Part shown: positions 20,650 through 48,980 of the stretch, piece after piece | Layout of the letters: each line of letters opens with the position of its first letter | How positions within the stretch are numbered: position 1 is the stretch's first letter | NCBI GenBank assembly: GCA_050303855.1 | Contig: JBNLCO010000010.1 | Location: 124,093 to 188,092 of the forward strand | Source of the DNA: Candidatus Pacearchaeota archaeon | GTDB taxonomy: Archaea; Nanobdellota; Nanobdellia; Pacearchaeales; GW2011-AR1 | Length of the DNA: 64,000 nucleotides | Direction: 5' to 3' | The notes under the pieces: generated by a model | Database searches by the model: none | Told to the model about the DNA's origin: nothing | What the model saw: the letters and a program-made list of their open reading frames with translations, nothing else | Position numbers and translations under genes: made by a program

Positions 20650-21636
20650 ATGGAACCCTTAATTGCAATAACAATTTTTGCGAGTTTTTTTTGCTCATTT
20701 TTGATAACACCCCTTTGGATAAGGAAAGCCAAGTCTTTAGGGTTAACAGGTAAAGATATTCACAAGAAAAAATCTGAAGAGGTAGCAGAAGGGGGAGGAG
20801 TAGGTATCTTGTTTGGATTTACAATAGGCGTTTTACTTTATGTTGCAATAAATACGTTCTACTTTAACAATACTACCAAACTTACAGAAATATTTGCTTT
20901 ACTTTGTGTTATATTCATAGGGTCAATTGTAGGAATAGTTGATGATTTGACTGGATGGAAAAAGGGGTTGAGTAGGAAGATAAGAATTGCGATAGTTGTA
21001 TTTGCTGCAATTCCTTTAATGGTTATAAACGCGGGGGAATCTTCTATACTTGGAATAAATCTGGGCATATTCTTCCCATTGATAGTTATACCTCTTGGGA
21101 TTGTTGGGGCGACAACAGTTTACAACACTCTAGCTGGATACAATGGTCTTGAAACTTCGCAAGGTATGCTTTTACTTGGAGCTTTGGCTTATATTACATA
21201 CATTACGGGAAACCCTTGGTTAAGTGTTGTTGCATTGTGTATGGTTGCTGCTCTTCTTGCATTCTACTTTTTCAATATGAATCCTGCTAAAATCTTCCCA
21301 GGAGATATTACAACATACTCAATTGGGGCTCTATTTGGGGGGATTGCTATAATTGGAAATGTAGAAAAAATAGCTTTGTTCTTTTTCATACCCTATATAT
21401 TTGAGATCATATTAAAGATCAGAGGTAAATTGGAAAAGGAGAGTTTTGGTAAATTAAACCAAGATGGAGAAAGTCTTGATTTGAGGTATAATAAGATATA
21501 TGGTCTTGAACATCTTGCTATAAAAATATTAAAGAAAGTCAAGAAATCTGGAAAAGCATACGAAAACGAAGTGGTCTGGTTGATAAATGGTTTCCAATTA
21601 TTAATAATTATTCTTGGACTTTTGATATTCTTTTAA
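20650..21636 (+). CDS. aglH: UDP-HexNAc:dolichyl-phosphate HexNAc-1-phosphate transferase (GT4 MraY/WecA/AglH family)
   Basis: Polytopic membrane protein with ..IVGIVDDLTGW.. and ..NTLAGYNGLETSQG.. motifs of the GPT/MraY family. Confidence 0.75.
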   Translation: MEPLIAITIFASFFCSFLITPLWIRKAKSLGLTGKDIHKKKSEEVAEGGGVGILFGFTIGVLLYVAINTFYFNNTTKLTEIFALLCVIFIGSIVGIVDDLTGWKKGLSRKIRIAIVVFAAIPLMVINAGESSILGINLGIFFPLIVIPLGIVGATTVYNTLAGYNGLETSQGMLLLGALAYITYITGNPWLSVVALCMVAALLAFYFFNMNPAKIFPGDITTYSIGALFGGIAIIGNVEKIALFFFIPYIFEIILKIRGKLEKESFGKLNQDGESLDLRYNKIYGLEHLAIKILKKVKKSGKAYENEVVWLINGFQLLIIILGLLIFF

Positions 21637-21673
21637 TAAAAAAGGTTTTAAATGATCATTATTTATCAAGAAG

Positions 21674-24415
21674 ATGAGTGATAAAGAATTTTCCCTAAAT
21701 GTTAAGGAAATTAAGAGTAGTTACAAAAAATCTAAGCATTTCTTTATGGACAAAAGAGTACAATTAATCCTTACTGCAGTTATTTTTCTTATTATACTAA
21801 TATCTGCTTCTGTAATAAGAACCTCCAATTTGGACAATCTTAAAGACATGACTACCGGAAACTATTCTGCAGCAGATCCAGATGCTCTTTATTTCCTAAG
21901 GCTGTCCCACGTTGTTCTTGACCAAGGAAATTTAAATGGTGTTGATGCTTTAAGGGCTCCAGGTTTAAACATACCTTATCTTAAGGAGATTGCCCCTTAC
22001 ACAATTGTTGGAATTTACAAAATAGCTAGTGTGTTTAGCCAGGGGGCAGATCTTAACTTCATTGCGGTAATTTCGCCAGTAATATTCTTCATTTTGGGAC
22101 TAATTGTCTTTTTCTTTCTCTGTTATTATTTAACAAAATCAAAACTTGTTGCTTTACTTTCTTCCGCATTTTTAGCATTTTCACCTGCATATTTGTTTAG
22201 AACTATGTCTGGAGTTTTAGATCACGATTCTATAGGTATGTTGGGAATATTTGCGACACTACTCGTTTTTGCTGTAGGCTCTAAGAGATATAATAAATCA
22301 AAAAATAAAACTTTGTTGTGGGGAGGAATTTTGGGCCTATCAACAGCATTCGCATTGGGAGCATGGGCAGGAGGGGTTACATTCTTGTTTATGATTATAC
22401 CTCTTGCAATAATTGTTAATTACTTGTTTAACCTTGAAGGGAAAAAGGAGGAAAAAGAGAAACTAATTTTATTCAATATAACTTGGCTTGTTTCATATGT
22501 AATCTTCACTAGAATCATTGGATTTGCTATGTCTGATATACTTAATCGGTTGACAAATCCTTCAAGTATGTTGGTATTACTCGTCTTAGGTTTTATCGTG
22601 GTGGATTATCTTGTTGAAAGAAACATGAAGAAGTTGAAAATGATTAAAGAAGAAAATAGGGTTGCTTATTCTATTGTTGCAGCAATAATTTTGGGAATCT
22701 TATTATTGACTTTGACGGGAAACAATTTCTTCTCTATGGTCTCTCAAATATATTATAAAATCTTGAATCCTTTCGGTTACGGAGGAAGATTAGGTTCCAC
22801 CGTTTCAGAAAATGCCCAACCGTATCTAACCTCTTGGATAAGCCAAATAGGAAAGGGTCTGTTCGCTTTATTCTTTGCAGGAATGGTTCTTATGGGGTTT
22901 GATTTTTCTAAGAAGATCGGCTCTAAAAAACACCGTATTTATTTTGTTGCGTTTTGGATAATCCTTATATCAGGGATATTATTTAGTAGAATCTCTCAAG
23001 GCCATATACTAAACGGAGAAAATTTCATAAGTCAAATATTTTACATTGGAGGATTTTTATTATTCCTTATTTATTTCGTAAGACTATATTTCAAAAACAG
23101 ATTTGAGATAGACAAAGACATGATCTTGGTTTTCTCTTGGATGTTATTCATGTTAGTTCTTAGTAGGGCTGCTGCAAGAACAATATTTGTTGCAACACCC
23201 TTTGCATGTTTCGCTGCAAGCTATTTGCTTGTTGGGTTGGGAAAGAGATTGAGAAAACCTAGAGAAGATACGATGAAAATGATTCTTTGGTTAATTTTCA
23301 TAATAGGAGTTATACTTGCATTCGTTTCTTTATTTGGAAACCCTTTAACTCAGTCTCCAGGTACGTATCAAATACTTAAGAATCAGGCGTCAGGCATCGG
23401 TCAAGCAGCAAATTATCAATGGCAATACGCAATGGAGTGGGCAAGAGATAATACTGGAGAAGGAGATATTTTTGTACACTGGTGGGATTATGGGTATCTC
23501 GTCCAAACCCTAGCAAATAGAAAGACCGTTAGTGATGGAGGTCATGCTGCAGGAGATTCAGGAGACCATAATGTAGGGAGATACATCTTAACAACCCCTA
23601 ACCCTATTACTGCCTTGAGCTATATGAAGACTTGGAATGTTTCCTATTTGATAATTGATCCAACAGATCTTGGAAAATATGGAGCATATTCAAAGATTGG
23701 AAGTGATAAGGATTATGATAGATACTCAGCTCCATTTGCTTTAGCAAAAGAAGATAGTCAAACTGTTGAAACTTCTTCAGGAAACAAATTTGTTTACCAA
23801 GGAAGTAGTTTTGTTGACGGAGATATCAGCTATCAAGATATATTCATCCCTGGACCAAGCTTTACAGAATCAGGACAAGCAACTGCGAACGCATACATTA
23901 TAGGATTACTTTTAGAAACCTCCGATGTGTCGGAAGGAAGAACCGAGATAAAACAACCCCAAGCAGTATTCTACTATAAAGATAAACAATATCAAATTCC
24001 CATAAGATATGTGTATTATCAAGGAAGGATTATGGATTTCCAATCAGGTATAGAATCAACATTCGTTTTGATTCCTAAAGTAAATGAAGACTCTTTAGGG
24101 TCAATAGGCATTGATTATACAGGGGCAGGAATGTATTTATCAGAAAAAGTCTCCGATAGTCTATTTGCAAACCTTTATTTGATGGATGATCCATTCAATA
24201 AATACCCTACAATCACTCTTGCAAATTCTGAAGATGATTACGTTGTTAATGCTTTGAAACAACAGGGTGCAGAGGTTGGGGACTTTGTATATTATGGTGG
24301 TTTCAGAGGTCCTTTAAAAATTTGGAAAGTAGAATACCCTCAAGGAACTGAAACACATGATGAATTCTTGCAGTTGACTTCTAATTGGGAAGGAGAATTA
24401 GATAAATTATTTTGA
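21674..24415 (+). CDS. aglB: oligosaccharyltransferase AglB / STT3
   Basis: 913 aa, N-terminal multi-TM domain, WWDYGY catalytic motif (..VHWWDYGYLV..), large C-terminal soluble domain. Confidence 0.85.
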   Translation: MSDKEFSLNVKEIKSSYKKSKHFFMDKRVQLILTAVIFLIILISASVIRTSNLDNLKDMTTGNYSAADPDALYFLRLSHVVLDQGNLNGVDALRAPGLNIPYLKEIAPYTIVGIYKIASVFSQGADLNFIAVISPVIFFILGLIVFFFLCYYLTKSKLVALLSSAFLAFSPAYLFRTMSGVLDHDSIGMLGIFATLLVFAVGSKRYNKSKNKTLLWGGILGLSTAFALGAWAGGVTFLFMIIPLAIIVNYLFNLEGKKEEKEKLILFNITWLVSYVIFTRIIGFAMSDILNRLTNPSSMLVLLVLGFIVVDYLVERNMKKLKMIKEENRVAYSIVAAIILGILLLTLTGNNFFSMVSQIYYKILNPFGYGGRLGSTVSENAQPYLTSWISQIGKGLFALFFAGMVLMGFDFSKKIGSKKHRIYFVAFWIILISGILFSRISQGHILNGENFISQIFYIGGFLLFLIYFVRLYFKNRFEIDKDMILVFSWMLFMLVLSRAAARTIFVATPFACFAASYLLVGLGKRLRKPREDTMKMILWLIFIIGVILAFVSLFGNPLTQSPGTYQILKNQASGIGQAANYQWQYAMEWARDNTGEGDIFVHWWDYGYLVQTLANRKTVSDGGHAAGDSGDHNVGRYILTTPNPITALSYMKTWNVSYLIIDPTDLGKYGAYSKIGSDKDYDRYSAPFALAKEDSQTVETSSGNKFVYQGSSFVDGDISYQDIFIPGPSFTESGQATANAYIIGLLLETSDVSEGRTEIKQPQAVFYYKDKQYQIPIRYVYYQGRIMDFQSGIESTFVLIPKVNEDSLGSIGIDYTGAGMYLSEKVSDSLFANLYLMDDPFNKYPTITLANSEDDYVVNALKQQGAEVGDFVYYGGFRGPLKIWKVEYPQGTETHDEFLQLTSNWEGELDKLF

Positions 24416-24420
24416 GAACA

Positions 24421-25221
24421 ATGGATGGCAAAATTAAGAATAGCTTGAAAGAGAACTATGTCAAAAGAATAGCTAATAGAGTGATGAACACGCTTTATAT
24501 CTACCCTTTCTTCAAACTAAAGGGTCCTTTGAAAGGCCATACGGCAAAAATAATTAATTTGCATTACATAGAGAGGGCTCCAGAAACTCAAGTTGCGGAA
24601 ATAATTGAGAGTAAAGTAAACCTCGGAGACAAGGTAATTGATGTGGGAACACATTTTGGATACTATACCTTACTCATGGCAAAGAAGGTTGGATCGGAAG
24701 GAAAAGTCATATGTTTTGAGCCTTCTAAAGAGACAAGAAATATTCTTAGGAACAATATTAAGAAAAATAAATACCAAGATAGAACAATAATTGAGAGCAA
24801 AGGCGTTTCCAATGAAAGAAAAACTCTCCCATTTAGCGTTAGGAAATTTAGTCCAATGAATACTTTTACGATTGAGGAATATGGAAATGTCAAAAAAATT
24901 GAATGTATTGATTTAGACACTTATTGTAAAGAGAAGGATATTACCCCTTCTTTCCTAAAGATTGATGTAGAGGGTGTGGAAAAAGAAGTTATTGAAGGTA
25001 TGAAGAAGCTAATAAGAATAAGTAAACCAAAGGTTCTCCTTGAAGCTTCAAAAGAAACAGAAGGTATGGAAGAAATATTTGATATGTTTATTAAAAATGG
25101 ATACAAAGTTTACACTTGGAGAACAAGGGTTGATGAGGACTCTTGGAAAGATCTGGTTGAAATAAAAAGGCCAGGAGAAGTGATTACAAAACACATCTAC
25201 TTCGAGTATCCTCTTTTCTAG
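24421..25221 (+). CDS. FkbM-family SAM-dependent methyltransferase
   Basis: ..VIDVGTHFGYYTLLMAKKVGSEGKVICFEPS.. motif. The track ORF (24412) starts at a TTG overlapping the aglB stop. The ATG at 24421 is more likely. Confidence 0.6.
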   Translation: MDGKIKNSLKENYVKRIANRVMNTLYIYPFFKLKGPLKGHTAKIINLHYIERAPETQVAEIIESKVNLGDKVIDVGTHFGYYTLLMAKKVGSEGKVICFEPSKETRNILRNNIKKNKYQDRTIIESKGVSNERKTLPFSVRKFSPMNTFTIEEYGNVKKIECIDLDTYCKEKDITPSFLKIDVEGVEKEVIEGMKKLIRISKPKVLLEASKETEGMEEIFDMFIKNGYKVYTWRTRVDEDSWKDLVEIKRPGEVITKHIYFEYPLF

Positions 25222-26324
25222 TTTATCGCTTTAGAATATATTTCTCTTAGAATTTCATTTCTTTTTTCTATGGAAAATTTCTCTTTTGATTCTTTTATAG
25301 CATTCTTAGACATTTTATTAAGTAGTTTTTTATTCTTTATTAGCAATGAAGTTTTCTCAACAAGATTACTTATGAACGTTTCATCCATTTCAGCATACCC
25401 TTTCCAATTTTTAGGAAGATCTATTAGAAAACCTGTTTTCCCTTCAGAAACCAATTCTGATTTTGCAAAACTATTTGTTGTTATTACAGGTAATCCGTAC
25501 GCCAATGCTTCTGGAACTGCAAAACCATAAGAATCTCCAAACCCGGGGTAAAAGAATATATCTGAAGAAGGATAAATTTCTTTGAATAACTTCTCTTGAG
25601 GAATAAGGTCCATTATTTTTATCTGTTTGTTTTTAGAATACTTATCTTTAAACTCCTTTGGAATCGGACAGAGAAATATAAATTCAACATTCTTATGATT
25701 TTTTGATAAACGATCAAAGACCTCCAAAGTTTGACGGCCCCCTTTTGCATCAAACCACCTTGCAACGAATAAAACTCTTGTTTTTTTGTGAGGTATTTTC
25801 TTAAAATTAACGGGAGGTGTTGCGAAAGGCACAATAGCCATTTTGTCTAAGATCTTTCTATTTCTATGGAATGCTTTTTCAAAAGTTTTTTTGCAATCTT
25901 CTGACCAAACCAATATTTTCTTACAATATTTACTCTCTAGCCTATTTCTTATTATTGCTTTTCCTAAGCCCTTTGTGGCAGTATTTCTACCTGCAGAAGC
26001 TAATTGATCATAAACTTCAGTATCTACCACCCATGGTTTCCTATTTAAGCTTAAACAGTGAGCACAATGAATTAGATCAAAATTTCTTGAGGTAGTAAAG
26101 GTTAAGTTAGGCAAGTGGATCAGCCTCAATAATTTCCTTATTCTATTTTTGAAAACCCTCATAGATTCGAATTTCCTTCCAGATCCAATAATTTCCATTT
26201 TCTTTGAATTCTTTTTGTAGTTAACATAACTAATATTTTTTGGAGGAAAATCAAGAATGTTTTTGTAGTATGAACTATCTGGAAATTTCCATGGATATTG
26301 CAGATGAACCTTGATTTCTTTCAT
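25218..26324 (-). CDS. glycosyltransferase, GT1-fold (CAZy GT4-like)
   Basis: C-terminal ..FFYPGFGDSYGFAVPEALAYGLPVITT..E..K.G motif. Confidence 0.7.
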   Translation of the reverse strand: MKEIKVHLQYPWKFPDSSYYKNILDFPPKNISYVNYKKNSKKMEIIGSGRKFESMRVFKNRIRKLLRLIHLPNLTFTTSRNFDLIHCAHCLSLNRKPWVVDTEVYDQLASAGRNTATKGLGKAIIRNRLESKYCKKILVWSEDCKKTFEKAFHRNRKILDKMAIVPFATPPVNFKKIPHKKTRVLFVARWFDAKGGRQTLEVFDRLSKNHKNVEFIFLCPIPKEFKDKYSKNKQIKIMDLIPQEKLFKEIYPSSDIFFYPGFGDSYGFAVPEALAYGLPVITTNSFAKSELVSEGKTGFLIDLPKNWKGYAEMDETFISNLVEKTSLLIKNKKLLNKMSKNAIKESKEKFSIEKRNEILREIYSKAIN

Positions 26325-27570
26325 ATATATTTTGCATACCAGAAGAGTTTATAAAATTATAACCTTGATAATAAGTATGGTTAAGGAAGTGGACGCGGTT
26401 TACGTTGTTGCATCCAAATTGGGAAGTATTGGAATGGGTTCTGCAGCATATAGTGCTATAAAAGGTATTGATAAATCAAAAGACATATCTTATAGAATTT
26501 TCTGTAGAGGATATAATTCTAAAGTTAAAATAAATAAAAAAAATCTTATTTCTTATGGATATTTAGAATATCTTTCTTACCCTTTTCGTTTTTTGGAGAA
26601 AAAACTTAAGATAAAGATTGATTCATTCAAATGGGTAAACTATCTTTTTGGCAAAAGAATTTATAAAAATCTGCCAAAGTGTAAGATCTACCATACTTGG
26701 ATGGGGATATCTCCAGAAGCGATAAAAAAGGCAAAAAAGAACGGAGCAATATTGATTCTAGAAGCGGCAAATTCCCACCCCCTAAATTTCTTAAATCTTA
26801 TTAATGAAGAATACAAAACTTTTGATTGCGATAAATTCATTTTAGAAACTGAAAAATTTAAGAAAGATGTGGAATACATAAAATCATTTGACTATATTTC
26901 TTGCCCGTCTGATTTCGTTTATAATTCTTTTTTGGAAGAAGGCTTTGCAAAAGAAAAACTAATAAAGATTAACTATGGGGTTGATGTGGACAAATTTTCT
27001 CCTTCTAGAAGAAAGAAAGATAAGAAATTTCGGGTGTTATTTGTGGGATCAATACAAATGAGAAAAGGAATTCCTTATTTACTAAAAGCGTGGGAAGAAT
27101 TGAATTTAAAAGATTCTGAACTAGTTGTTGTAGGAAGTGTTTATCCTGAAGCTGTTCAAATTATTAAGAAATATTTAAAAAACCCTTCAATAAAATTCTG
27201 CGGTTTTAACCCTGATTTGAGGGAATACTATTCAAATGCGGATGTTTTTGTATTTCCTTCTATTGAAGAGGGTTCTGCTTTAGTTAATTATGAGGCTATG
27301 GCTTCAGGTTTACCATTAATCACAACATTTAATTCAGGAAGTGTTGCAAGAGACGGAAAGGAGGGATTTATTATACCTATAAGAAATACAGAGAAGTTAA
27401 AAGAAAAAATAAAATTTATGCATGACAACCCTAAAAAACGTATTCAAATGGGCAAAAATGCTAGAAAAAGAATCGAAGAATTTACTTGGGACATATACGG
27501 AAAGAAGTTATCAAATCTTTATCGAGATCTCCTGAAGAAATCAAAATATACTTCTCTTACAATTATTTAA
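26311..27570 (+). CDS. glycosyltransferase, GT1-fold (CAZy GT4-like)
   Basis: ..VFVFPSIEEGSALVNYEAMASGLPLITT..G..EGFI.. motif. True start possibly at the internal Met (~26377). Confidence 0.7.
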   Translation: MISFIYILHTRRVYKIITLIISMVKEVDAVYVVASKLGSIGMGSAAYSAIKGIDKSKDISYRIFCRGYNSKVKINKKNLISYGYLEYLSYPFRFLEKKLKIKIDSFKWVNYLFGKRIYKNLPKCKIYHTWMGISPEAIKKAKKNGAILILEAANSHPLNFLNLINEEYKTFDCDKFILETEKFKKDVEYIKSFDYISCPSDFVYNSFLEEGFAKEKLIKINYGVDVDKFSPSRRKKDKKFRVLFVGSIQMRKGIPYLLKAWEELNLKDSELVVVGSVYPEAVQIIKKYLKNPSIKFCGFNPDLREYYSNADVFVFPSIEEGSALVNYEAMASGLPLITTFNSGSVARDGKEGFIIPIRNTEKLKEKIKFMHDNPKKRIQMGKNARKRIEEFTWDIYGKKLSNLYRDLLKKSKYTSLTII

Positions 27571-27589
27571 GAATAATAATGTTTATTAA

Positions 27590-28612
27590 ATGTCATTTTT
27601 TGAGGTTCTTATGGATTTAACAAATGAATATTTGAATAAAAAAGTATTGATTACAGGCGGTGGCGGCTTTATTGGAAGCAACCTTGCAATAAAATTAGTA
27701 GAATTAGGCGCAGAAGTTTCGGTAATGGATTCGAAATTAAAGCCTTATGGGTTTAATTTGTTTAATCTTGATCCAGTGTTGGATAAAATAAATATAGATT
27801 ATTCGGATATAAGGGATAGAAATGCTGTTGAAAGGAATATTGCTGGACAAGATATAATCTTTAATTTGGCTGCACAGGTAGGTGAAAAAGTAGGAGAGGA
27901 AAATCCTTTTTTAGACTGGGACATAAATGTTAGAGGGCACATGGAAGTATTAAATGCATGCAAAAACAAAAATAAAGAAGCAAGAATAATATTTCCAGGT
28001 TCAAGGTTACAATATGGTAAGACAAATGGGGCAGAGATAATTTCTGAAAGCCACCCCATGAACCCCTTAACTAATTATGCCAGAAACAAAGTCGTGGGGG
28101 AAGAAATGTACCAAAAACTTAACAAAGAGGGTTTAGAAACGGTAACATTTAGAATTGCTAATCCTTTCGGTCCTCGTGCATCAATTAATAATCCTGGTTA
28201 TTGTATTGTCAATTGGTTTATTGGTAGGGCCTTGGATGGAAAAGATTTACCCATTTATGGAGAAGGGTCTCAGGCAAGAGATTATATTTTTATAGAAGAT
28301 TTAACAGATGCTATGGCAATCGCAGGAGTCCATAAAAATTCTCCAGGAAACACTTACAATTTAGGGTCAGGCCAGAAGACTTTATTCAAAGATATGGCTG
28401 AGAAAATAGTTGCACTTTCAGAAAATAATTATTCAAAAATAAATTTTGTTGAATGGCCAAAAGATGCAAAAGAAAGAGAGACTGGAAATTTTGTCGCAGA
28501 TATCTCAAAGATAGAAAGAGAATTGGGTTGGAAGCCTAAGTATAGTTTAGAAGAGGGTCTGAAAAGAACAATTGAATTTTATAGAGAAAATAAGAACAAT
28601 TATATTGGATAA
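27590..28612 (+). CDS. NAD-dependent sugar-nucleotide epimerase/dehydratase (extended SDR)
   Basis: TGGGGFIGSNL Rossmann motif. YxxxK region present. Confidence 0.7.
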   Translation: MSFFEVLMDLTNEYLNKKVLITGGGGFIGSNLAIKLVELGAEVSVMDSKLKPYGFNLFNLDPVLDKINIDYSDIRDRNAVERNIAGQDIIFNLAAQVGEKVGEENPFLDWDINVRGHMEVLNACKNKNKEARIIFPGSRLQYGKTNGAEIISESHPMNPLTNYARNKVVGEEMYQKLNKEGLETVTFRIANPFGPRASINNPGYCIVNWFIGRALDGKDLPIYGEGSQARDYIFIEDLTDAMAIAGVHKNSPGNTYNLGSGQKTLFKDMAEKIVALSENNYSKINFVEWPKDAKERETGNFVADISKIERELGWKPKYSLEEGLKRTIEFYRENKNNYIG

Positions 28613-28694
28613 AATCACGAGAATATTTATAAAATAGAAAAAAATTCTAGATGAATGAGGAATAATTTTATTACATTTTGTAGGAGGTTATTGG

Positions 28695-29279: not shown

Positions 29280-29305
29280 AAAGAAAAACAAAGTTTTAGG
29301 AAGGT

Positions 29306-41440: not shown

Positions 41441-41442
41441 AA

Positions 41443-42314
41443 TGAATAATAATAAATCCAAGAAATTTGATTTGAATACTCCTGTTTTATTTTTAGTATT
41501 TAATCGATTAAATTCTACAAAAAAAGTTTTTGAAGAAATTAAGAAAGCTAAGCCAAAAAAAATATTCATAGCTGCAGATGGGCCTCGGAATCAAGAAGAA
41601 AAATCTAAGACAGATTCTGTTAGAGAATATATTATAAAAAACATTAAATGGAAATGTCAGGTCAAAACTCTTTTTCGGGAAAAAAACCTTGGTTGCAAAT
41701 ATGCAGTATCTTCCGCGATTGATTGGTTCTTCAAAAATGTTGAAAGAGGGATTATATTAGAGGATGATTGTTTGCCTAACCAAAGTTTCTTTAGATTTTG
41801 TCAAGAAATGCTTGAAAAATACAGGGATAACGAGAAAATAATGCATGTTTCAGGGACCAATATTGAAGAAGTCTCAAAAATTCCAGAGAGTTATTTCCTC
41901 TCAAGATGCACCAACGTTTGGGGATGGGCTACATGGAGAAGAGCTTGGAAAGATTATGATGTTGAAATGAGAAAATGGCCAATTTGGAAAATAAAAATTC
42001 TTGGTCTGATGAAAAATTATGGACTATTTAACAAAATAAAATCTTGGAGGTTGTATGAATTAACTTATAGAAATAAGATAAATACGTGGGACTACCAATG
42101 GGATTTCTTATGTAGAATAAAAAAAGGACTAAGCATTGTTCCAAAGGTTAATTTGATAACCAATCTCGGTTTTATTGAAGGAACCCATACAGTCAATTAT
42201 CAAAAAAATGAAAAAACATTAAAGAGGAGAGAGCTAAAATTCCCTTTAGAATCCAGAAAAATCAATATTTTGGAAGAATATCAGAAGAAATATTTTAGAT
42301 TCTTTGGGAAATAA
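41443..42314 (+). CDS. putative glycosyltransferase (HlpA-like nucleotide-diphospho-sugar transferase fold)
   Basis: ..VLFLVFNRLNSTKKVFEEI...ILEDDCLP.. pattern. Start at the TAAAATG junction. Confidence 0.4.
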
Positions 42315-42351
42315 GGAATATTTTTAAAAAGTGTATGGAATTGGTTAATCA

Positions 42352-43005
42352 ATGGTCGAAAAGCTTAGGGGAGATTATTCACTCCATACTTTCAAAAAAG
42401 AAATTTTTAGAAGAGTTCCAAGAAATTCTAAGGTTTTGGAAGTTGGATGTAATTTTGGTCTTTTAGGAAAAGCCCTTAAAGATAAAAAAGAATGTACTGT
42501 TTACGGTATAGAGATTTATGAGCCTGCTCTGAAGAAGGCTAAAGAGAATCTTGATTTAGCAAAGAAAGTAGATTTGGAAGATTATTCTTTACCATTTAAG
42601 GAGAAATTTGATGTAATAATCTTTGAAGATGTTCTCGAGCATATACGATACCCAGAAGTTACACTTAAATTATATAGGGATATGCTTACCCCAAAAGGAA
42701 AAATCATCATATCTCTTCCAAATGTTGCAAACATAAAAATTAGATTTAAACTTTTATTTGGAAAATGGGACTATGAAGATGAAGGGATACTAGACAAAAG
42801 TCATTTTAAATTTTATACAAGAAAAACTTCTCTTCTTCTCCTAAGAAATGCAGGCTACTCTGCAAAAATAGTAGACTTTACTCCAGGTTTTAGTTTTATA
42901 TTTTTTAGGTTTTACCCCTTATTAAAGAGAATAAGGAAGGTTCTATGTTCAATAAACCCAAAATTATTTTCACAACAGTTTATCCTAGAAGGAAAATTAA
43001 GATGA
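42352..43005 (+). CDS. class I SAM-dependent methyltransferase
   Basis: ..VLEVGCNFGLLGKAL... motif I. ..IIFEDVLEH.. motif. Confidence 0.6.
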   Translation: MVEKLRGDYSLHTFKKEIFRRVPRNSKVLEVGCNFGLLGKALKDKKECTVYGIEIYEPALKKAKENLDLAKKVDLEDYSLPFKEKFDVIIFEDVLEHIRYPEVTLKLYRDMLTPKGKIIISLPNVANIKIRFKLLFGKWDYEDEGILDKSHFKFYTRKTSLLLLRNAGYSAKIVDFTPGFSFIFFRFYPLLKRIRKVLCSINPKLFSQQFILEGKLR

Positions 43006-43886
43006 AATCCAAACCATTTGTAAATATTGTATTGCTAAATTTAAACAATTATTTGGATACAGTAGAATGTTTGGATTCGATTAAAAATATAGAATATAAG
43101 AAATGGGGCATAACGCTTTTAGATAATGGATCTACAGACAATTCTTTTGATAAGTTGAAGAAGAAATATGGAAAGAACAAGAAAATAAAATTCATGTCAA
43201 ACAAAACAAACTTAGGATTTGCTAAAGCAAACAATCAGGCTATGAAAAAGGACCTATTTGACTCTGATTATTTTCTTTTGTTAAATAATGATACAATTGT
43301 TAAGAGAGATTTTTTAACAAAACTTGTTCATGAAGAAAAAGATCTAATTTCTCCTTTAATTTACAACTACTATTCTAAGAAAGAATTGAGTAGAAACGAT
43401 TTTCCAGGAAAATTCAATCTTTTTATTGGAGGGGGGAGAGCAATCAACCCTGTGAGAGATAAAACAACCAAGGTAGATTATGCTTCAGGGTGTTGTTGGT
43501 TAATAAAGAAGTCATTATTCAAAGAAACAAACGGGTTTAACGAGGAATATTTTGCATATAATGAGGAAGTTGAGTGGGCGTATAGGTTGAGAAAATCAGG
43601 CTATCAATTTTACTTGTCCGGCCATTCAAAGATCTGGCACAAAGGGGCAAAAACCTCTTCTAAAATATCAGGTTTCAAAATGAAATTTATGAACCGAAAT
43701 ATAATCTGGTTTGAAAAAAAATATGCCGGATGGAAATATCCTATTTTCCTAATATATTTATTTTTATATAGGGTTCCAAAGAACATTATTAAGATTATCG
43801 TCTCGAGGAAAGAAGTTGTTAAAAACATAAAGAGTTTTTTTTCAGGTCTTGGAGAAGGTTTATTTTCAAAAGAGGTAAATCAATAA
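42945..43886 (+). CDS. GT2-family glycosyltransferase
   Basis: ..IVLLNLNNYLDTVECLDS.. and ..LLNNDTIV.. (DXD-region). Probable true start at Met ~42981. Confidence 0.7.
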   Translation: MFNKPKIIFTTVYPRRKIKMKSKPFVNIVLLNLNNYLDTVECLDSIKNIEYKKWGITLLDNGSTDNSFDKLKKKYGKNKKIKFMSNKTNLGFAKANNQAMKKDLFDSDYFLLLNNDTIVKRDFLTKLVHEEKDLISPLIYNYYSKKELSRNDFPGKFNLFIGGGRAINPVRDKTTKVDYASGCCWLIKKSLFKETNGFNEEYFAYNEEVEWAYRLRKSGYQFYLSGHSKIWHKGAKTSSKISGFKMKFMNRNIIWFEKKYAGWKYPIFLIYLFLYRVPKNIIKIIVSRKEVVKNIKSFFSGLGEGLFSKEVNQ

Positions 43887-43910
43887 AAACCCTTTTTTAC
43901 TGAAGAAAGT

Positions 43911-45716
43911 ATGTGTGGAATAAACGGATTTAATTTTTTAGACAAAAAAACTCTAAGATCTATGAATGGGTCTCTGAGTCATAGGGGCCCTGACGGATCA
44001 GGAGAATTCTTTGATACAAGGGGCAAAGTTTCACTCGGGCATCTAAGACTTTCTATTATTGACTTATCTAAAAAAGGATCTCAGCCAATGACTTATACCC
44101 ACAAAGGGAAGAAGGTAGTTATTGTATTTAATGGGGAAATCTATAATTTTATGGAAATAAAAGAAGATCTCTTGAAAAAAGGACATAGGTTTAAATCAAA
44201 TTCGGATACGGAGATTATAACTGCAAGTTATTTGGAATGGGGAAAGGAATGTGTAAAGAAGTTCAACGGTATGTGGGCTTTTTGTATCTATGATCCTCAA
44301 AAAGAAATCTTGTTCTTATCCAGAGACCGAATTGGAAAAAAGCCAATTTACTATTACTTTGATAAGAAGAAATTTATTTTTTCATCAGAAATAAAGGGTA
44401 TATTGGAACATAAAGTAAAGAAAAAAATAAATCCAGAGTCATTGGATCTTTATTTCTCTCTAGGATTCATCCCTGCTCCTTATTCAATTTATGAGAATAT
44501 ATTTAAGCTAGAGCAAAGACAATCAGTGATATTTGATTTGAACAAGAAAAAACTTACAAAAGAATATTATTATCACTGGCCCGAATATTCACCAAAGAGA
44601 AATAAAGATAAGAATATCGAAGAAATAAAGAATCTTCTGAGGGACTCGGTTAAGAGGAGAATGATTTCTGATGTCCCTTTAGGCGCTTTCCTTTCTGGAG
44701 GTCTCGATAGCTCGACAATAGTTAACTTTGCAAAGAAACTAAACCCAAACATAAATACTTATTCAATTGGATTTGAAGGCAAATATGATGAAACCCAAAA
44801 CATAAACCAAATAGTTAAAAAATTCAAGACAAAACACCACCATAAATATTATCACGAATCTGATTTCAAAAAAGGTTTAAAGAAAATATTTTATTACTAT
44901 GATGAGCCTTTTTCGGATCCTTCCATGTTTCCAACTATATTTCTTTCAAGGTTTGCTCGTCAAAAAATCACAGTATCTCTTAGCGGAGATGGAGGGGATG
45001 AAATTTTTGGAGGTTATCCAAGGTACAAAAAAGCAAAACAACTTGAGAAATTAATGAAAATCCCAAGATTTTTAAGAAAAATTGTTTTACATCTCCCCCT
45101 GCCTTATTCTCTCAAAGAAGGAATCAAATTAAGTTTGAATAAAAAGGATTTGTTCTATTCTGAAGCAAGAAGTGATTTCTATAAACCATTCGTTACTAAG
45201 AATCTGCTTCAAGAAAAATTAGCATCGTGTCTTAAAAGAACAAAAGGCAACCTTGTAGAGGCAGTTAGGCTGATGGACATTGAATTTTATACTCTTCCGG
45301 ATAATTTCTTAACTAAGGTAGACCGAGCTTCTATGGCCAATGGATTAGAGATTAGATGTCCTTTTTTAGATTACAAAATTATAGAATACTCTATGAAAAT
45401 TCCAACAAAATATAGGGTTTCATTATTTAGAGATAAAATTCTTTTTAAGAAAATTATAAAGAATTTCTTGCCCAAAAAGATTATCTCACAAAAAAAGAAA
45501 GGATTTACTCCTCCAATAAATGATTGGATTTCTCGAAAAGAGTACGGAGATACACTCAACAAAATCATATCTGAATTGGAAAAAAATAAGGTGTTGTCTG
45601 GAGATTGGATCAATTTTTATAAAAAAAGGATACTGGATAGAAACTCTCTTGTTGAAAATAACTATAAAATAAGACTTTATTTGTTCTATGAATGGTATAA
45701 ACTTTGGATTAAATAG
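43911..45716 (+). CDS. asnB: asparagine synthase (glutamine-hydrolysing)-family amidotransferase
   Basis: MCGINGF N-terminal nucleophile. ..SGGLDSS.. PP-loop. Confidence 0.8.
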   Translation: MCGINGFNFLDKKTLRSMNGSLSHRGPDGSGEFFDTRGKVSLGHLRLSIIDLSKKGSQPMTYTHKGKKVVIVFNGEIYNFMEIKEDLLKKGHRFKSNSDTEIITASYLEWGKECVKKFNGMWAFCIYDPQKEILFLSRDRIGKKPIYYYFDKKKFIFSSEIKGILEHKVKKKINPESLDLYFSLGFIPAPYSIYENIFKLEQRQSVIFDLNKKKLTKEYYYHWPEYSPKRNKDKNIEEIKNLLRDSVKRRMISDVPLGAFLSGGLDSSTIVNFAKKLNPNINTYSIGFEGKYDETQNINQIVKKFKTKHHHKYYHESDFKKGLKKIFYYYDEPFSDPSMFPTIFLSRFARQKITVSLSGDGGDEIFGGYPRYKKAKQLEKLMKIPRFLRKIVLHLPLPYSLKEGIKLSLNKKDLFYSEARSDFYKPFVTKNLLQEKLASCLKRTKGNLVEAVRLMDIEFYTLPDNFLTKVDRASMANGLEIRCPFLDYKIIEYSMKIPTKYRVSLFRDKILFKKIIKNFLPKKIISQKKKGFTPPINDWISRKEYGDTLNKIISELEKNKVLSGDWINFYKKRILDRNSLVENNYKIRLYLFYEWYKLWIK

Positions 45717-46821
45717 TTTCAAATATTTTTATAAACCTTTTAGAGAATTTTTTTAATTCAAATTCCTTTATGAATTTTTTTCTTCCCGTAAGACCCATTT
45801 TTTTCCTTTTGTTGAAATTCTTTAACTTTAAAACAGCCTCCGCTATTTCTTCGGGTTTATTTTCCTTTAGAACGAATCCTGTTTTTTCATCATCAATTAT
45901 TGAGGGTATGGTTGCTATTCCATTTGCAACAACAGGGATCCCAAACATCATCCCTTCAATTATAACCCTTCCAAAAGTCTCCAAGGGATATTCTGTTGGA
46001 AATATTATAATATCAGACTTACTTAGGACCATGTTTTTTTCCTCTCCTGATTTTTTTCCTAGGTAAGAGATGTTCTCTTGTAGATTGTGTGATGTGGCAA
46101 AATTCTTGAATAAATTGAATTCGTTTTTTCCAGGAAAAGCGCCAACAAAAGCACAATTAAATTTTAATCCAGATTTTTTTAATAAAACACAAGATTGAAG
46201 TAGTTTCATCCATCCTTTGGAGATATCCATATTTGATAAAAAAAGAAGGTCAAGTTTTCGTTTTGAACTTTTTTTGTTTATAAGTTTACTTAGTTCTTTT
46301 TCGGATACCACGTTCTCAATTGCGTTAGGAAGTAAAATTATGTTCTCTCTAGATATTGAACCGTGTAGATCTTTGATAAGTTCTTCTCCTAACAGAATGA
46401 TTTTTTGGTTTTTAATCATCTTTGATAATTTTCGCTTAAACGATTTTTTTCCCCAATCGTTATCAAGAATCCTACTCCTTAGATGAAAAATAATCTTTCC
46501 CGCATAATTCTTCTTTATTTGTTTCCAGAATAAATAATCTCTCTTGAAACCCCAGGAAGAAGTTGCAGGGACAAAATATATTACGTCTGGGTTAAATTTC
46601 TTTAAAGTCTTTTTAATCATAGATCTTACCTTAAAAAAACCCCTTATTTTTTCGATATTGAATTTTCCTATATCAGATATTTTTTTAGAATAGTTTAGAC
46701 GAATGTTTTCTACATCAAATTTTCTAGAATCATTTAATATCTTAAGGCACATCTCGCTAGAAAGTGCACTCCCGTAATTAGGGGGAGGTAACGGACTTAT
46801 GAACAAGATTCTCTTTTTCAT
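45709..46821 (-). CDS. glycosyltransferase, GT1-fold
   Basis: ..IIFPTEYPLETFGRVIIEGMMFGIPVVA...GFV.. C-terminal GT-B motif. Confidence 0.65.
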   Translation of the reverse strand: MKKRILFISPLPPPNYGSALSSEMCLKILNDSRKFDVENIRLNYSKKISDIGKFNIEKIRGFFKVRSMIKKTLKKFNPDVIYFVPATSSWGFKRDYLFWKQIKKNYAGKIIFHLRSRILDNDWGKKSFKRKLSKMIKNQKIILLGEELIKDLHGSISRENIILLPNAIENVVSEKELSKLINKKSSKRKLDLLFLSNMDISKGWMKLLQSCVLLKKSGLKFNCAFVGAFPGKNEFNLFKNFATSHNLQENISYLGKKSGEEKNMVLSKSDIIIFPTEYPLETFGRVIIEGMMFGIPVVANGIATIPSIIDDEKTGFVLKENKPEEIAEAVLKLKNFNKRKKMGLTGRKKFIKEFELKKFSKRFIKIFETI

Positions 46822-47549
46822 TTTATCAAGGTTGTGTGTTTAAGGAGGTATTTATTTGCCATAAAACTTCGTTTCACTTTTTTCCAAGTATGTCTGAAAT
46901 CGGTTATTAACCTATAGAACCATTCCAAACCAATAGATTGGAAAAACGTTGGAGATTGTTTTTTGTTCCCTTTTGCATAATCAAAGAATGCACCGACATT
47001 AAAGAAAAAAGACACATTTACTTTTTCTGATAAATCGTTAGATAAAATTTCCTGTTTGGGGTTTCCAATTGCAATCCAAACATAATCTGTCTTTATTTTT
47101 TTTATCTTTTTTACTAATTCACTGTCATCAAATTTCTCTTTTTTTAGTTGAGGAAGCCCGTAGTAAAAACAACTTGTTTTTTTTAATAAAGGGTATTTTT
47201 CAACAATGTTTTCTATATCTTCTTCTGAAAAATTTCCAATAAATAAATGTCTTTTTCCTTTTAGAATAGCCTCATTTTTCATAAAAGAATCTGAGAAATC
47301 AGGACCCTTCAATCTTTTTACGGGTTTTAGAAATTTGAAGGATAATATAATGGAGAGGATAAAACCATCAACAAAGTTATAATTTTTGTCTTTTAATATA
47401 TGTTCTCTAAAAATTTTGTGATTTCTGAACAAATATACAGTGTGAGAATTTACAAAATTAAAAATAGAATTTTTTGGGAATTCATTCTGAGAGATTCTTT
47501 CAAATAAACCATTAATTGACGTTTCTGTTAAACCTAATGATTCTTTCAT
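46818..47549 (-). CDS. WecB/TagA/CpsF-family (GT26) glycosyltransferase
   Basis: ..FVNSHTVYL...YVWIAIGNPKQE...GLEWFYRL.. family motifs. Confidence 0.7.
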   Translation of the reverse strand: MKESLGLTETSINGLFERISQNEFPKNSIFNFVNSHTVYLFRNHKIFREHILKDKNYNFVDGFILSIILSFKFLKPVKRLKGPDFSDSFMKNEAILKGKRHLFIGNFSEEDIENIVEKYPLLKKTSCFYYGLPQLKKEKFDDSELVKKIKKIKTDYVWIAIGNPKQEILSNDLSEKVNVSFFFNVGAFFDYAKGNKKQSPTFFQSIGLEWFYRLITDFRHTWKKVKRSFMANKYLLKHTTLIK

Positions 47550-47585
47550 GTAAATTTAAGAAATAAGCCCATTAAAAGGGTTTTG

Positions 47586-48980
47586 CTACCCTCTATTTCT
47601 TCTCCGAGAATAAATTATACCCACAAAATAAATTAGTCTGCTTGCTATCGTAGCGAAACAAGCTCCAAGTACTGCTTGAAACATTCCAGGGGGACCAAAG
47701 AAGCCATGATTTAAACCATAAGTTATTCCGAAATAGTTAAACCCAATATTAAAAATTGTACTTACGATTAGAAGCTTTGCAATTACACTTGTTTTCTTTT
47801 GTGAAATCATATAGTTATCGTATATTCCTGAAATCGGAAGTAAGAAAATTATAGCCGCTAGAAGTTTTAGGATAGGAACGGCTGTCAGATATTCTGAACC
47901 ATAAGCAATTTTAACAACATAATAAGCGATAAAATAAGTTATTATTGCAGATAAAAATGCGATTAGGAAAGTTATATTTCTAGATTTCTTAAATAATCTT
48001 TCTAGAGATCTACCTTCAAGTTTAGCAAATAAAGGGAATAGTGCTGCAGCAGTAAAACCGATTATTGCTGTGGCAGAACCCACCAAACTAAATGCTGCCC
48101 CATAATATGCTATAAATTCTTCTGAAACAAAATGTCCAAGCATAAGAGTATCAATATATCCAAAAAACACTCCCGAAAGGGCTGTGACCGTTAAAGGGAG
48201 AAGGAATTTCTTTACTTCTTTTACTTCTTGTTTATCTAATTTTCCAGCTTTCCCTTTTACGAAAGAGACTTTCTTCCTTGCCATGAGGGCAAATATGAAG
48301 AGACTAATTGCATAACAAATCGTTAAAGAAAGTAAAACAAGTGCTACAACGGTTCCATTTGATAAACTTGTCTTTAGCAAGAACAAAATAGTCAAAGGAA
48401 CAATTGTCAATCTTAGGGTCTGAAATATTATTTCCTTTACAAGAGGCATCTTGAAATTATTTGTTGCTTTAAAAGACTGCTCAAAGAAATTTAGGAATCC
48501 TACAATTGGTATATAAAGGCCTCCTACCAGCAAAGCATAGAATATTGGTTTGTTATAATATCCATTTGCAACAAAATAAGCACTTGCTAGGAGAACTAAG
48601 GAGCACACTGTGGTTAAAACAAATTTCCATCTTAATAAGGTTCTGAAATATTTTTTAGCTTTTTCTAGATCTTTTCTTCCAAGAACTTTAGAAATAAACG
48701 TGACAACGCCTGTTGATATCCCAAAATCAGAAAATGCAGAAAACAAAACAATTGTGGATAGTGCAAGTGAATAAAGGCCCATTCTCTCTGGCATAAGTAG
48801 TCTTGCAACGATTATTGTGAAAAAAAGTGATCCAAACTTAATTGTCAAATTTTCTGCTAATTGGTAACTAGAATTCTTTATAGCTTGTCCAGTGTTTCCT
48901 GAAAAATCTCTCTTCTTAAAACGCCTGAAAACATTTCTCGCATCTCCTTCTTCCTTTTCTAAAAAATCATCCATGAACAA
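47586..48980 (-). CDS. MOP-superfamily polysaccharide/oligosaccharide flippase (Wzx-like)
   Basis: 464 aa, ~12-14 TM, typical PST-family layout. Adjacent to GTs. Confidence 0.65.
   Translation of the reverse strand: MFMDDFLEKEEGDARNVFRRFKKRDFSGNTGQAIKNSSYQLAENLTIKFGSLFFTIIVARLLMPERMGLYSLALSTIVLFSAFSDFGISTGVVTFISKVLGRKDLEKAKKYFRTLLRWKFVLTTVCSLVLLASAYFVANGYYNKPIFYALLVGGLYIPIVGFLNFFEQSFKATNNFKMPLVKEIIFQTLRLTIVPLTILFLLKTSLSNGTVVALVLLSLTICYAISLFIFALMARKKVSFVKGKAGKLDKQEVKEVKKFLLPLTVTALSGVFFGYIDTLMLGHFVSEEFIAYYGAAFSLVGSATAIIGFTAAALFPLFAKLEGRSLERLFKKSRNITFLIAFLSAIITYFIAYYVVKIAYGSEYLTAVPILKLLAAIIFLLPISGIYDNYMISQKKTSVIAKLLIVSTIFNIGFNYFGITYGLNHGFFGPPGMFQAVLGACFATIASRLIYFVGIIYSRRRNRG

Follow-up and report, generated by a model that had tools for sequence, protein, structure and literature searches.

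A predicted pathway to a branched 3,6-dideoxy-heptose in an AglB-associated glycan island of a DPANN archaeon

The 64-kb stretch of contig JBNLCO010000010.1 analysed here (the window) contains a contiguous glycan island of 28 kb at positions 20650–48980, extending from an AglH-like initiating transferase to a Wzx-type flippase, in which genes for surface-glycan assembly accompany a set predicted to make an unusual deoxy-heptose. The island lies between the end of a SpoIIM-like gene (20619) and the start of SecD (49025). The upstream flank holds ribosomal-protein genes (L32e, L19e), SecY and EMC3/YidC-like, prefoldin, IF-2B-family and SpoIIM-like genes; the downstream flank holds SecD/SecF, three tRNAs and one 5S rRNA, and the GC content of the island (0.29–0.36) is the same as that of its flanks. 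SecY of the window is 83–85% identical to that of metagenome-assembled genomes (MAGs) labelled Pacearchaeota or Nanoarchaeota, and the host is thus a DPANN archaeon of a Pacearchaeota/Nanoarchaeota-like group. The stretch is also present, identical, in contig JBNLBP010000001.1 (MAG GCA_050302495.1) and in a Logan assembly. Families were assigned by Pfam and NCBIfam profile matches on the open reading frames (ORFs) of the window, those of the island being at least 90 aa long. Every gene named for the island in an earlier reading made from the letters alone (the sequence-only reading) was recovered as an ORF where that reading had placed it, with significant family matches. The genes that would build and modify the sugar, with the matches used for their assignment, are as follows (SDR, short-chain dehydrogenase/reductase; ThDP, thiamine diphosphate; PMP, pyridoxamine 5′-phosphate).

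28695–29279, forward strand: putative GmhA, sedoheptulose-7-phosphate isomerase (TIGR00441)
29306–30286, forward strand: putative GDP-heptose 4,6-dehydratase, a short Gmd-like SDR (best PDB match 7us5)
31346–32002, forward strand: HAD-IA phosphatase (Pfam HAD_2)
32062–33849, forward strand: YerE-like ThDP-dependent carboligase, 595 aa, proposed C4-branching enzyme (three ThDP domains)
37174–38304, forward strand: putative ColD-type PMP-dependent sugar 3-dehydratase, DegT family with His185 (Pfam DegT, 8e-82)
38311–39168, reverse strand: PanB-like 2-oxoacid hydroxymethyltransferase of a glycan-cluster clade, proposed supplier of the branch donor (NF001452, TIGR00222)
39395–41440, forward strand: fusion of putative HddC (N-terminal; heptose-1-phosphate guanylyltransferase) and HddA (C-terminal; heptose-7-phosphate kinase), 681 aa (top NCBIfam matches)

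TIGR00441 is by far the best match of GmhA (E 8.5e-60), and HddA and HddC are likewise the best family matches of the fusion protein. The sequence-only reading, which had proposed a full heptose module, agrees with these best matches and was right about the joining of HddA and HddC in one protein; it had named HddA first, the order being HddC then HddA, and its HAD phosphatase is not of the GmhB type. A tblastn search of the 64-kb window with the GmhB-like protein of a related island (L088, described below) found no GmhB-type gene, so the module cannot be called full. We rejected the phosphatase gene at 31346 as the default GmhB (HAD-IIIA), since its product is of the HAD-IA type and L088 carries it besides a true GmhB-type HAD.

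The closest solved relative of the 4,6-dehydratase, the presence of which had been predicted, is the Campylobacter jejuni GDP-D-glycero-D-manno-heptose 4,6-dehydratase (PDB:7us5; 300 bits, E 2e-88), whilst GDP-mannose dehydratases reach at most 145 bits. Its catalytic set consists of SSSE at approximately residues 123–126 and Y151xxxK155. In the DegT-family protein, His185 (SFYVAHIV) aligns with His220 of E1 (Lys in the H220K mutant, PDB:3bb8) and with the Schiff-base Lys of the aminotransferase 7b0m; with His in place of Lys, an ordinary aminotransferase making an amino sugar was ruled out. The protein has no Fe-S insert, the alignment skipping E1 residues 250–280, and no ferredoxin-reductase-like (E3-type) gene was found with Pfam among the island ORFs; E1-type radical deoxygenation was rejected because both are missing. 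Together, the His for Lys exchange, the absent E1 segment and the lack of an E3-type reductase point to a ColD-type, PMP-dependent 3-dehydratase, so that of the ColD/E1 type proposed earlier the ColD part stands and the E1 subtype does not. Judged from its sequence, this enzyme belongs to a separate His-type lineage of ColD-type 3-dehydratases, far from both ColD and E1. Conversion of GDP-heptose to the 6-deoxy-4-keto and then to the 3,6-dideoxy-4-keto sugar has been shown biochemically for C. jejuni HS:5 and HS:11, as part of a four-step route to GDP-3,6-dideoxy-heptose; the C3-dehydratases of that organism are 62–67% identical to ColD (PMC10440746).

Deoxygenation and branching could instead take place on GDP-mannose, yielding a colitose- or yersiniose-like hexose, with GmhA and the HddC–HddA fusion supplying a separate, unmodified heptose. 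The dehydratase does belong to the Gmd family, its second-best PDB match, 2pk3, acts on a hexose derivative, the ColD and E1 precedents are both hexose pathways, and an unmodified heptose is present in the N-glycan of Thermoplasma acidophilum. We nonetheless regard a hexose scaffold as quite improbable, given the scores of the dehydratase against heptose and mannose enzymes, the position of GmhA immediately upstream of it, and the HddC domain being the sole candidate in the island for a mannose-1-phosphate guanylyltransferase. Moreover, the combination of GmhA, HddC–HddA, a His-type DegT and the ThDP gene is seen again in Methanoperedens, in SAR11 and in a further archaeal locus (L089).

The ThDP enzyme falls below every NCBIfam cutoff for acetolactate synthase (AHAS; 365 bits against 538), and in the PDB ranking the first match is JanthE (8rph, 311 bits), a YerE-like enzyme (PMC12188165), followed by PpYerE (5ahk, 273 bits) and then plant AHAS (242 bits). 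By analogy with these relatives we infer a YerE-like carboligase, and predict carboligation of a keto-sugar. Homologues at 60–78% identity are very numerous and occur across domains: a scan of species-representative genomes gave 80 loci, in Nitrospira (including Ca. N. defluvii), Pelagibacteraceae, Prochlorococcus, many members of the Candidate Phyla Radiation (CPR), Woese-, Pace- and Nanoarchaeota, and Methanoperedens, and every context inspected was a nucleotide-sugar cluster. Of 87 loci drawn from genomes and assemblies, 52 combine the ThDP gene with genes for a GHMP kinase and an NTP-transferase; 67 DegT-family proteins were matched within 10 kb of the ThDP gene in this set, and all but one of them (66) carry the His that corresponds to His185. 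The neighbouring DegT is of the His type in all 34 cases in an independent set of 49 IMG/VR loci, giving 100/101 for both sets over approximately 140 loci, a count that overstates independence because the sample is phylogenetically redundant, with many Nitrospira and marine contigs. The association covers more than 10 phyla. A near-universal pairing of this kind is expected if the ThDP enzyme takes a 3-deoxy-4-keto sugar as its acceptor, as YerE does after E1 (PMC12247030, PMC9306805).

Several of the loci are of interest in their own right. A Nitrospira cluster (L037; Ca. Nitrospira defluvii FP929003, 2,266,498–2,288,267) has the order PilZ/YcgR, DegT(His), SDR, HddA-like GHMP kinase, NTP-transferase, class I/II aminotransferase, B12-radical-SAM, ThDP, B12-radical-SAM, a 1800-aa multi-GT2/methyltransferase/TPR protein and GT9, which is conserved in Nitrospira; it may serve flagellin or lipopolysaccharide glycosylation and offers a cultivable host in which to study the module. 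On ERZ23495091 scaffold_21 (L090; 4435–6971 and 13440–16660), an overlapping ThDP–PanB pair and radical-SAM, GT4 and methyltransferase genes lie approximately 6 kb from terminase and portal genes. The ThDP family occurs on 49 IMG/VR contigs (L091–L139); at least one of these (L094) is identical with a contig of a Prochlorococcus single-cell genome (L018), and the ‘viral’ label is therefore not reliable for all of them.

The PanB homologue scores above both NCBIfam equivalog cutoffs (NF001452, 305 bits against 272; TIGR00222, 253 against 207.6) and at face value is therefore a pantothenate enzyme. It keeps the catalytic and Mg-ligand residues D47, S48, D86, K116, E118, H140 and E183 (D45, S46, D84, K112, E114, H136 and E181 in Escherichia coli) and is 50–55% identical to canonical bacterial PanB. 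Its genomic setting is of another kind. In Oligoflexia and Tara Oceans contigs a PanB homologue runs into the beginning of the ThDP gene; such a homologue lies directly upstream of it in Woesearchaeota, Prochlorococcus, Pacearchaeota, Terriglobia and Planctomycetia, and adjoins it in 28 of the 49 IMG/VR loci; the closest relatives of the window PanB (56–71% identity) lie in ThDP-gene clusters wherever the context is readable (L088, L089, L090 and L009). In a neighbour-joining tree, the window PanB and its relatives form a clade apart from canonical bacterial PanB. Gln211 (E. coli numbering), which adjoins the pocket residue Ile212 and is invariant in 88/88 canonical sequences and in all five PDB PanBs, is Ile213 in the window and Val or Ile in 29/30 members of the clade, in which the GG(Y/F)(K/R)VQG loop is also shortened. 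Every clade member examined has a glycan-cluster rather than a pantothenate-pathway context. On its genomic context and separate clade, PanB as a stray pantothenate gene was ruled out.

It is likewise hard to credit that the ThDP and PanB genes are both primary-metabolism genes, for acetolactate synthase and ketopantoate hydroxymethyltransferase (KPHMT), that lie inside the island by chance. The equivalog scores, the complete catalytic residues and the identity of PanB to the canonical bacterial enzymes speak for such an origin, as does the AHAS large subunit being the best NCBIfam match of the ThDP enzyme. Against it stand the score of the ThDP enzyme below every AHAS cutoff, the repeated occurrence of both families, in many cases as two overlapping genes, in the sugar clusters of numerous phyla, and the loss of the invariant Gln211 in the PanB clade; nor are ilvN, ilvC, ilvD, panC or panE found nearby.

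Two precedents bear on what the PanB-like enzyme may do. E. coli KPHMT converts diverse 2-oxoacids and formaldehyde to 3-substituted 4-hydroxy-2-oxoacids (PMC7611260), and the YerE-like enzyme ErwE uses donors of the 4-hydroxy-2-oxoacid type made by an adjoining aldolase (PMC9306805). Taken with the context and the clade, these lead us to propose the PanB-like enzyme as the maker of the branch donor, which by this analogy it may supply to the ThDP enzyme. No paper linking PanB homologues to YerE-type enzymes was found in a search that did not take in the in-silico survey of YerE-like clusters by Krug et al. 2024 (Angew. Chem. e202403535), so that a prior description is possible. The C-branch that the sequence-only reading had offered as a possibility gains from three of the observations above, namely the greater closeness of the ThDP enzyme to YerE-like enzymes than to AHAS, its His-type DegT neighbours and the recurrence of PanB beside it.

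The same island occurs in a relative (L003/L088; contig NODE_23, ERZ4200981; SecY 80% identical), again between AglH/AglB and SecDF. Its sugar enzymes are 55–85% identical to those of the window, the dehydratase standing at 85%, the ThDP enzyme at 78%, the 3-dehydratase at 76% and PanB at 68%, as compared with only 41% for AglB. In this relative PanB and GmhA occupy other positions, and there are an extra GmhB-type HAD, a cytidylyltransferase–GHMP fusion and one more SDR. In the locus L089, also beside SecDF, DegT(His), PanB, B12-radical-SAM, ThDP, an RmlC-like epimerase, GmhA and HddC–HddA are found. From these comparisons, the module is stably retained in this archaeal group, though with an altered make-up. 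The fusion in the relative (L088, 7084–8241) adjoins the flippase and encodes a 385-aa protein, cytidylyltransferase-like with a GHMP-kinase C-terminal part; nothing in the window corresponds to it, and it may point to a second route to a nucleotide sugar.

Reductase candidates and accessory genes lie among the sugar genes. As in the sequence-only reading, they comprise three epimerase/reductases, which are extended SDRs (27590, 35133 and 36082), and a further SDR, of the classical type (34439); the kinase is new to the present analysis.

27590–28612, forward strand: extended SDR, GalE/UXS/RmlB-like (Pfam Epimerase; top PDB matches are UDP-glucose 4-epimerase-related proteins and UXS, approximately 110 bits)
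33850–34479, reverse strand: AAA_33 P-loop kinase (Pfam AAA_33/KTI12)
34439–35128, reverse strand: classical SDR without the canonical catalytic Tyr, VASACK (Pfam adh_short, 5e-38)
35133–36044, reverse strand: GDP-fucose-synthase-like SDR, ‘FclA’ (best NCBIfam match GDPFucSynFcl, 149 bits)
36082–37062, reverse strand: GDP-fucose-synthase-like SDR, ‘FclB’ (best NCBIfam match GDPFucSynFcl, 147 bits)

Of four orthologues of the classical SDR, three (window, L003 and L012) have Ala in place of the catalytic Tyr, which that of the Woesearchaeota locus L009 keeps; this replacement weakens the case for the protein as a clear equivalent of YerF. FclA keeps the equivalent of His179, its Cys109 position is occupied by Asn, and its Tyr and Lys are spaced as Y-x6-K; FclB has no equivalent of either residue and has the motif GG(Y/W)AK. 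Both match the C. jejuni reductase structures only partially, and the pair is kept with the module in DPANN and SAR11 loci. A PDB search with the kinase gave a sole match, PSTK, at 27 bits. The kinase and HAD-IA genes adjoin the ThDP gene in DPANN loci (window, L003, L009 and L012); we know of no role for such a pair in any branched-sugar pathway.

These genes bring in a different end product, an unbranched GDP-6-deoxy- or GDP-3,6-dideoxy-heptose, for which the Fcl-like SDRs would reduce C4, whether or not they also epimerise C5, the ThDP, PanB, kinase and HAD block making some other substituent (e.g. an acyl or hydroxyalkyl group that is not a sugar) or a second sugar. The two Fcl-like SDRs sit directly between the ThDP block and the 3-dehydratase, the C. 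jejuni precedent works without a ThDP enzyme, and the kinase and HAD-IA have no place in a YerE-type scheme. We consider an unbranched product unlikely, though not negligibly so. The pairing of the ThDP gene with the His-type DegT fits a 3-deoxy-4-keto sugar as the ThDP acceptor, the closest solved relatives of the ThDP enzyme are ketone-accepting YerE-like enzymes, and both Fcl-like SDRs have atypical catalytic motifs.

On balance, and with slightly better than even confidence, we favour a branched product: the sequences suggest that the island makes a GDP-activated 3,6-dideoxy-heptose branched at C4 by the ThDP enzyme, with a donor made by the PanB-like enzyme, in an AglB-centred glycan locus. 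In the outlined pathway, sedoheptulose-7-phosphate would be isomerised by GmhA, as its family membership suggests, and then phosphorylated at C1 by the HddA domain (also a best family match), the 7-phosphate being removed by the HAD-IA phosphatase or by the product of a gene elsewhere, both candidates. The 4,6-dehydratase would then give GDP-6-deoxy-4-keto-heptose, the reaction of its closest solved relative, and the His185 DegT, to go by this diagnostic residue, would remove the C3 hydroxyl in the manner of ColD to give GDP-3,6-dideoxy-4-keto-heptose. Meanwhile the PanB-like enzyme would hydroxymethylate a 2-oxoacid to a 4-hydroxy-2-oxoacid, which the YerE-like enzyme may decarboxylate, placing the acyl anion on the C4 ketone so that a tertiary-alcohol branch results, as the analogy with YerE and ErwE and the gene linkage suggest. 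Reduction of the side-chain ketone by one of the atypical SDRs is speculative, and the Fcl-like SDRs may also divert the 4-keto intermediate to an unbranched 6-deoxy- or 3,6-dideoxy-heptose. Finally, judging by co-location, the GT10-like or another glycosyltransferase would add the sugar to the AglH-started lipid-linked glycan, which Wzx would flip and AglB transfer to Asn.

Several observations weigh against this pathway. The scores of GmhA (201.3 bits against a TIGR00441 cutoff of 209.45) and of the fusion protein (HddA, 245.8 against 600; HddC, 197.3 against 300) are below the cutoffs, and there is the missing GmhB-type gene. The DegT protein is distant from ColD (2gms, 149 bits over the full length) and from E1 (164 bits), and no dTDP_sugar_isom/cupin (RmlC-like) domain of a C3/C5 epimerase was found in any island ORF of at least 90 aa. 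All three reductase candidates have non-canonical Tyr/Lys motifs, which are conserved in the orthologues. With Nitrospira and marine contigs dominating the ThDP loci, independent lineages are far fewer than loci. PanB of the window lies 4.5 kb from the ThDP gene, monocistronic and on the opposite strand, and most loci, for example those of the Nitrospira type, have no PanB within 10 kb of the ThDP gene, so that PanB may be an optional accessory and the donor plain pyruvate. Linkage to AglB alone does not prove that the sugar is attached to Asn. Substrates and products are predicted throughout. Nonetheless, the proposal of the sequence-only reading, a 6-deoxy- or 3,6-dideoxy-heptose, possibly C-branched, in an AglB-linked island, survived every sequence-level test run.

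A broader proposal, for which we would claim rather less than an even chance, is that PanB-family, YerE-like ThDP and His-type DegT enzymes form a module for undescribed 3,6-dideoxy sugars with a hydroxyacyl or hydroxyalkyl branch at C4, used here on a GDP-heptose scaffold for N-glycans, and spread by gene transfer through DPANN, CPR, Nitrospira, SAR11, Prochlorococcus and contigs classed as viral.

The remaining genes of the island belong to glycan assembly and modification (GT, glycosyltransferase; SAM, S-adenosylmethionine).

20650–21636, forward strand: AglH/WecA-like polyprenyl-phosphate sugar-1-phosphate transferase, initiating (Pfam Glycos_transf_4, E 2.6e-28; approximately eight hydrophobic segments)
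21674–24415, forward strand: AglB/STT3 oligosaccharyltransferase, 913 aa (Pfam STT3 and STT3-PglB core)
24412–25221, forward strand: FkbM-family methyltransferase (Pfam Methyltransf_21, 7e-23; TIGR01444 above cutoff), missing from the related island L003
25218–26324, reverse strand: GT4 glycosyltransferase (Pfam Glycos_transf_1, 1e-18)
26311–27570, forward strand: GT4 glycosyltransferase (Pfam Glycos_transf_1, 2e-33)
30279–31349, forward strand: GT10, fucosyltransferase-like glycosyltransferase (Pfam Glyco_transf_10, PF00852, 4e-25; 88.9 bits against a cutoff of 23.9)
41409–42314, forward strand: GT-A glycosyltransferase, GnT-I/POMGnT1-like, 301 aa (structure model; without a Pfam family)
42352–43005, forward strand: class I SAM methyltransferase (Pfam Methyltransf_23/11/12)
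42945–43886, forward strand: GT2 glycosyltransferase (Pfam Glycos_transf_2, 3e-17)
43911–45716, forward strand: AsnB-type glutamine amidotransferase (TIGR01536, 469 bits, above cutoff)
45709–46821, reverse strand: GT4 glycosyltransferase (Pfam Glycos_transf_1, 8e-28)
46818–47549, reverse strand: GT26, WecG/TagA-family glycosyltransferase (Pfam Glyco_tran_WecG, 6e-28; TIGR00696 above cutoff)
47586–48980, reverse strand: Wzx/MOP-family flippase (Pfam Polysacc_synt, Polysacc_synt_3 and MatE; approximately nine or more transmembrane segments)

Pfam and NCBIfam bear out the AglH-like transferase, AglB, the Wzx flippase, the GT10 enzyme, the two methyltransferases and the five or more other glycosyltransferases named earlier. 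AglB has WWDYG at residues 603–607, preceded by approximately 14 transmembrane segments, and scores 45.7 bits for STT3 (cutoff 24.5) and 29.6 bits for the STT3-PglB core (cutoff 23); with 83.7 bits for TIGR04154 against a cutoff of 450, it lies outside the archaeosortase-A-associated STT3 subfamily. Besides AglB and the initiating transferase there are seven glycosyltransferases (GT10, three GT4, GT2, GT26 and the GnT-I-type enzyme). The last of these, which the sequence-only reading had not mentioned, has no Pfam or NCBIfam match. An alignment-based AlphaFold (AF2) model of the 301-aa protein has a predicted local distance difference test score (pLDDT) of 91.5 and its top Foldseek matches are 5ggf, 5ggi and 1fo8 (E 2e-10), the GT13 GT-A enzymes POMGnT1 and GnT-I; EDD118–120 is invariant in the alignment. 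A single-sequence AlphaFold model reached a pLDDT of only 34.6, and the PDB profile search gave a marginal match (E 0.86). On the strength of the alignment-based model, the protein is modelled as a GnT-I-type GT-A glycosyltransferase. GT10 enzymes use GDP-fucose, and the GT10-like gene lies between the dehydratase and HAD genes; its product is therefore a plausible candidate for the transferase of a GDP-linked deoxy sugar. AsnB homologues occur near the ThDP gene in just 7 of 87 loci. Neither for AsnB nor for the two methyltransferases or the SDR at 27590 could a connection with the heptose be shown; the amide that had been suggested for the sugar thus finds no support.

Two of the listed starts are probably too far upstream. 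The GT4 ORF at 26311 (TTG start) encodes 419 aa as compared with 397 aa in the public gene call, placing the true start probably downstream (26311–26376), and the GT2 ORF shares 61 nt with the methyltransferase ORF before it (42945–43005) and encodes 313 aa, as compared with 293 aa in the L003 orthologue.

Most likely, the island is an AglB-centred surface-glycan assembly locus for an N-glycan. It could also build a surface polymer that is not N-linked, such as a capsule-like polysaccharide, an O-glycan or a glycolipid, with AglB and AglH just adjacent. A Wzx-type flippase with GT26, GT4 and GT2 sets is typical of Wzx/Wzy-type loci, and most homologous bacterial clusters cannot be N-glycan loci. 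The probability of a non-N-linked product is in our view low, though not negligible, since neither a Wzy polymerase nor a regulator of chain length was detected, the island opens with the initiating transferase and AglB in the same orientation, and the arrangement from AglH–AglB to SecDF is kept in L003/L088; archaeal agl genes, moreover, commonly cluster at aglB (PMC11407970).

An Rfam scan of the window found only 5S rRNA and tRNAs, all outside the island. A tRNA at 51444–51531 (88 nt; Rfam tRNA, 57.5 bits) is of uncertain identity (ARAGORN ‘tRNA-???’, anticodon call ‘tc’), and could be an archaeal tRNA that contains an intron or is atypical in some other way. A 5S rRNA gene (53264–53379; Rfam, 64 bits) stands alone in the window, which has no 16S or 23S rRNA; unlinked rRNA genes are frequent in DPANN genomes, which this gene fits.

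Comparison with known systems indicates which parts of the pathway are familiar. As in C. jejuni HS:5 and HS:11 (Ghosh, Xiang & Raushel 2023, PMC10440746), a Gmd-like 4,6-dehydratase would be followed by a C3-dehydratase of the PLP/PMP-dependent DegT family. The island differs in that its 3-dehydratase is distant from ColD and from those of C. jejuni, a cupin C5-epimerase is lacking, the reductase candidates are atypical, HddC and HddA are fused, and a ThDP carboligase and a PanB-like enzyme are added; it is also archaeal and located at aglB, whereas the C. jejuni genes lie in a capsule locus. With yersiniose A (E1/E3, YerE and YerF) and the erwiniose/caryophyllose scheme, the island shares a His-type 3-dehydratase leading to an NDP-3,6-dideoxy-4-keto sugar (PMC9306805, PMC12247030), an AHAS-like ThDP enzyme acylating C4 and a reductase that finishes the branch. 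The substrates of these pathways are CDP-hexoses, and their E1 is an Fe-S enzyme that works with an E3 reductase, in contrast to the GDP-heptose and ColD-like dehydratase predicted here, and the island ThDP enzyme, unlike theirs, belongs to a separate and highly conserved subfamily. In the erwiniose scheme, the neighbouring aldolase ErwI makes the 4-hydroxy-2-oxoacid donor for ErwE, the role that we propose for PanB; the donor supplier is a pyruvate aldolase there and a PanB-family hydroxymethyltransferase in our proposal. Canonical KPHMT and the island enzyme are alike in their full-length match above the equivalog cutoffs and in their Mg ligands and catalytic residues, and differ in the location of the latter in glycan clusters by a ThDP carboligase and without pan genes, in its separate clade and in the change of Gln211 to Val or Ile.

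The GDP-L-colitose pathway (Gmd, ColD and ColC) is similar in its GDP-linked substrate and its ColD-type dehydratase without an Fe-S cluster; the GDP-fucose-synthase-like SDRs of the island could epimerise and reduce in a comparable way, and a GT10-type transferase (for GDP-6-deoxy-L-sugars) fits. The predicted scaffold is a heptose and not mannose, neither Fcl-like enzyme has an equivalent of Cys109, FclB is also without that of His179, and the branching enzymes are extra. Other archaeal agl loci resemble the island in having glycosyltransferases, a flippase and sugar-nucleotide genes around aglB (PMC11407970, PMC12448462). The Thermoplasma acidophilum N-glycan, which contains unmodified D-glycero-D-galacto-heptose (PMC11407970, PMC12448462), is a precedent for a heptose, but an ordinary one, whilst the sugar of the island is predicted to be deoxygenated and branched. 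The literature searched on archaeal N-glycans yielded no heptose that was deoxygenated or C-branched, nor any N-glycan structure for a Pacearchaeota/Nanoarchaeota-like lineage. The novelty claimed by the sequence-only reading for archaeal N-glycans thus lapses for heptose as such, and for archaea only the deoxy or branched form would be new. Each enzyme family, the 3,6-dideoxy-heptose chemistry and the YerE/ErwE chemistry are known already; the combination with GDP-heptose, the PanB-family partner, the distinct conserved ThDP subfamily and the archaeal AglB-linked setting are apparently new.

The prediction rests on sequence inference, and concerns a core enzyme trio that is widespread but uncharacterised in environmental microbes. 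The ThDP family, found with its His-type dehydratase, is 60–78% identical across domains and occurs in abundant environmental groups (Nitrospira, SAR11, Prochlorococcus and CPR), so that one characterisation would annotate hundreds of clusters. If the proposal is true, a PanB-family enzyme acting in nucleotide-sugar chemistry as a donor supplier would be a new role for the family, and would constitute a one-carbon route to longer sugar branches, extending the aldolase/ErwE scheme; YerE-like enzymes are also wanted as biocatalysts for chiral tertiary alcohols. The surfaces of DPANN archaea of the Pacearchaeota/Nanoarchaeota type mediate their host-dependent lifestyle. In the present organism, 28 kb of a probably small genome is given over to the island, which yields a concrete and testable prediction of the sugar that would be made there.

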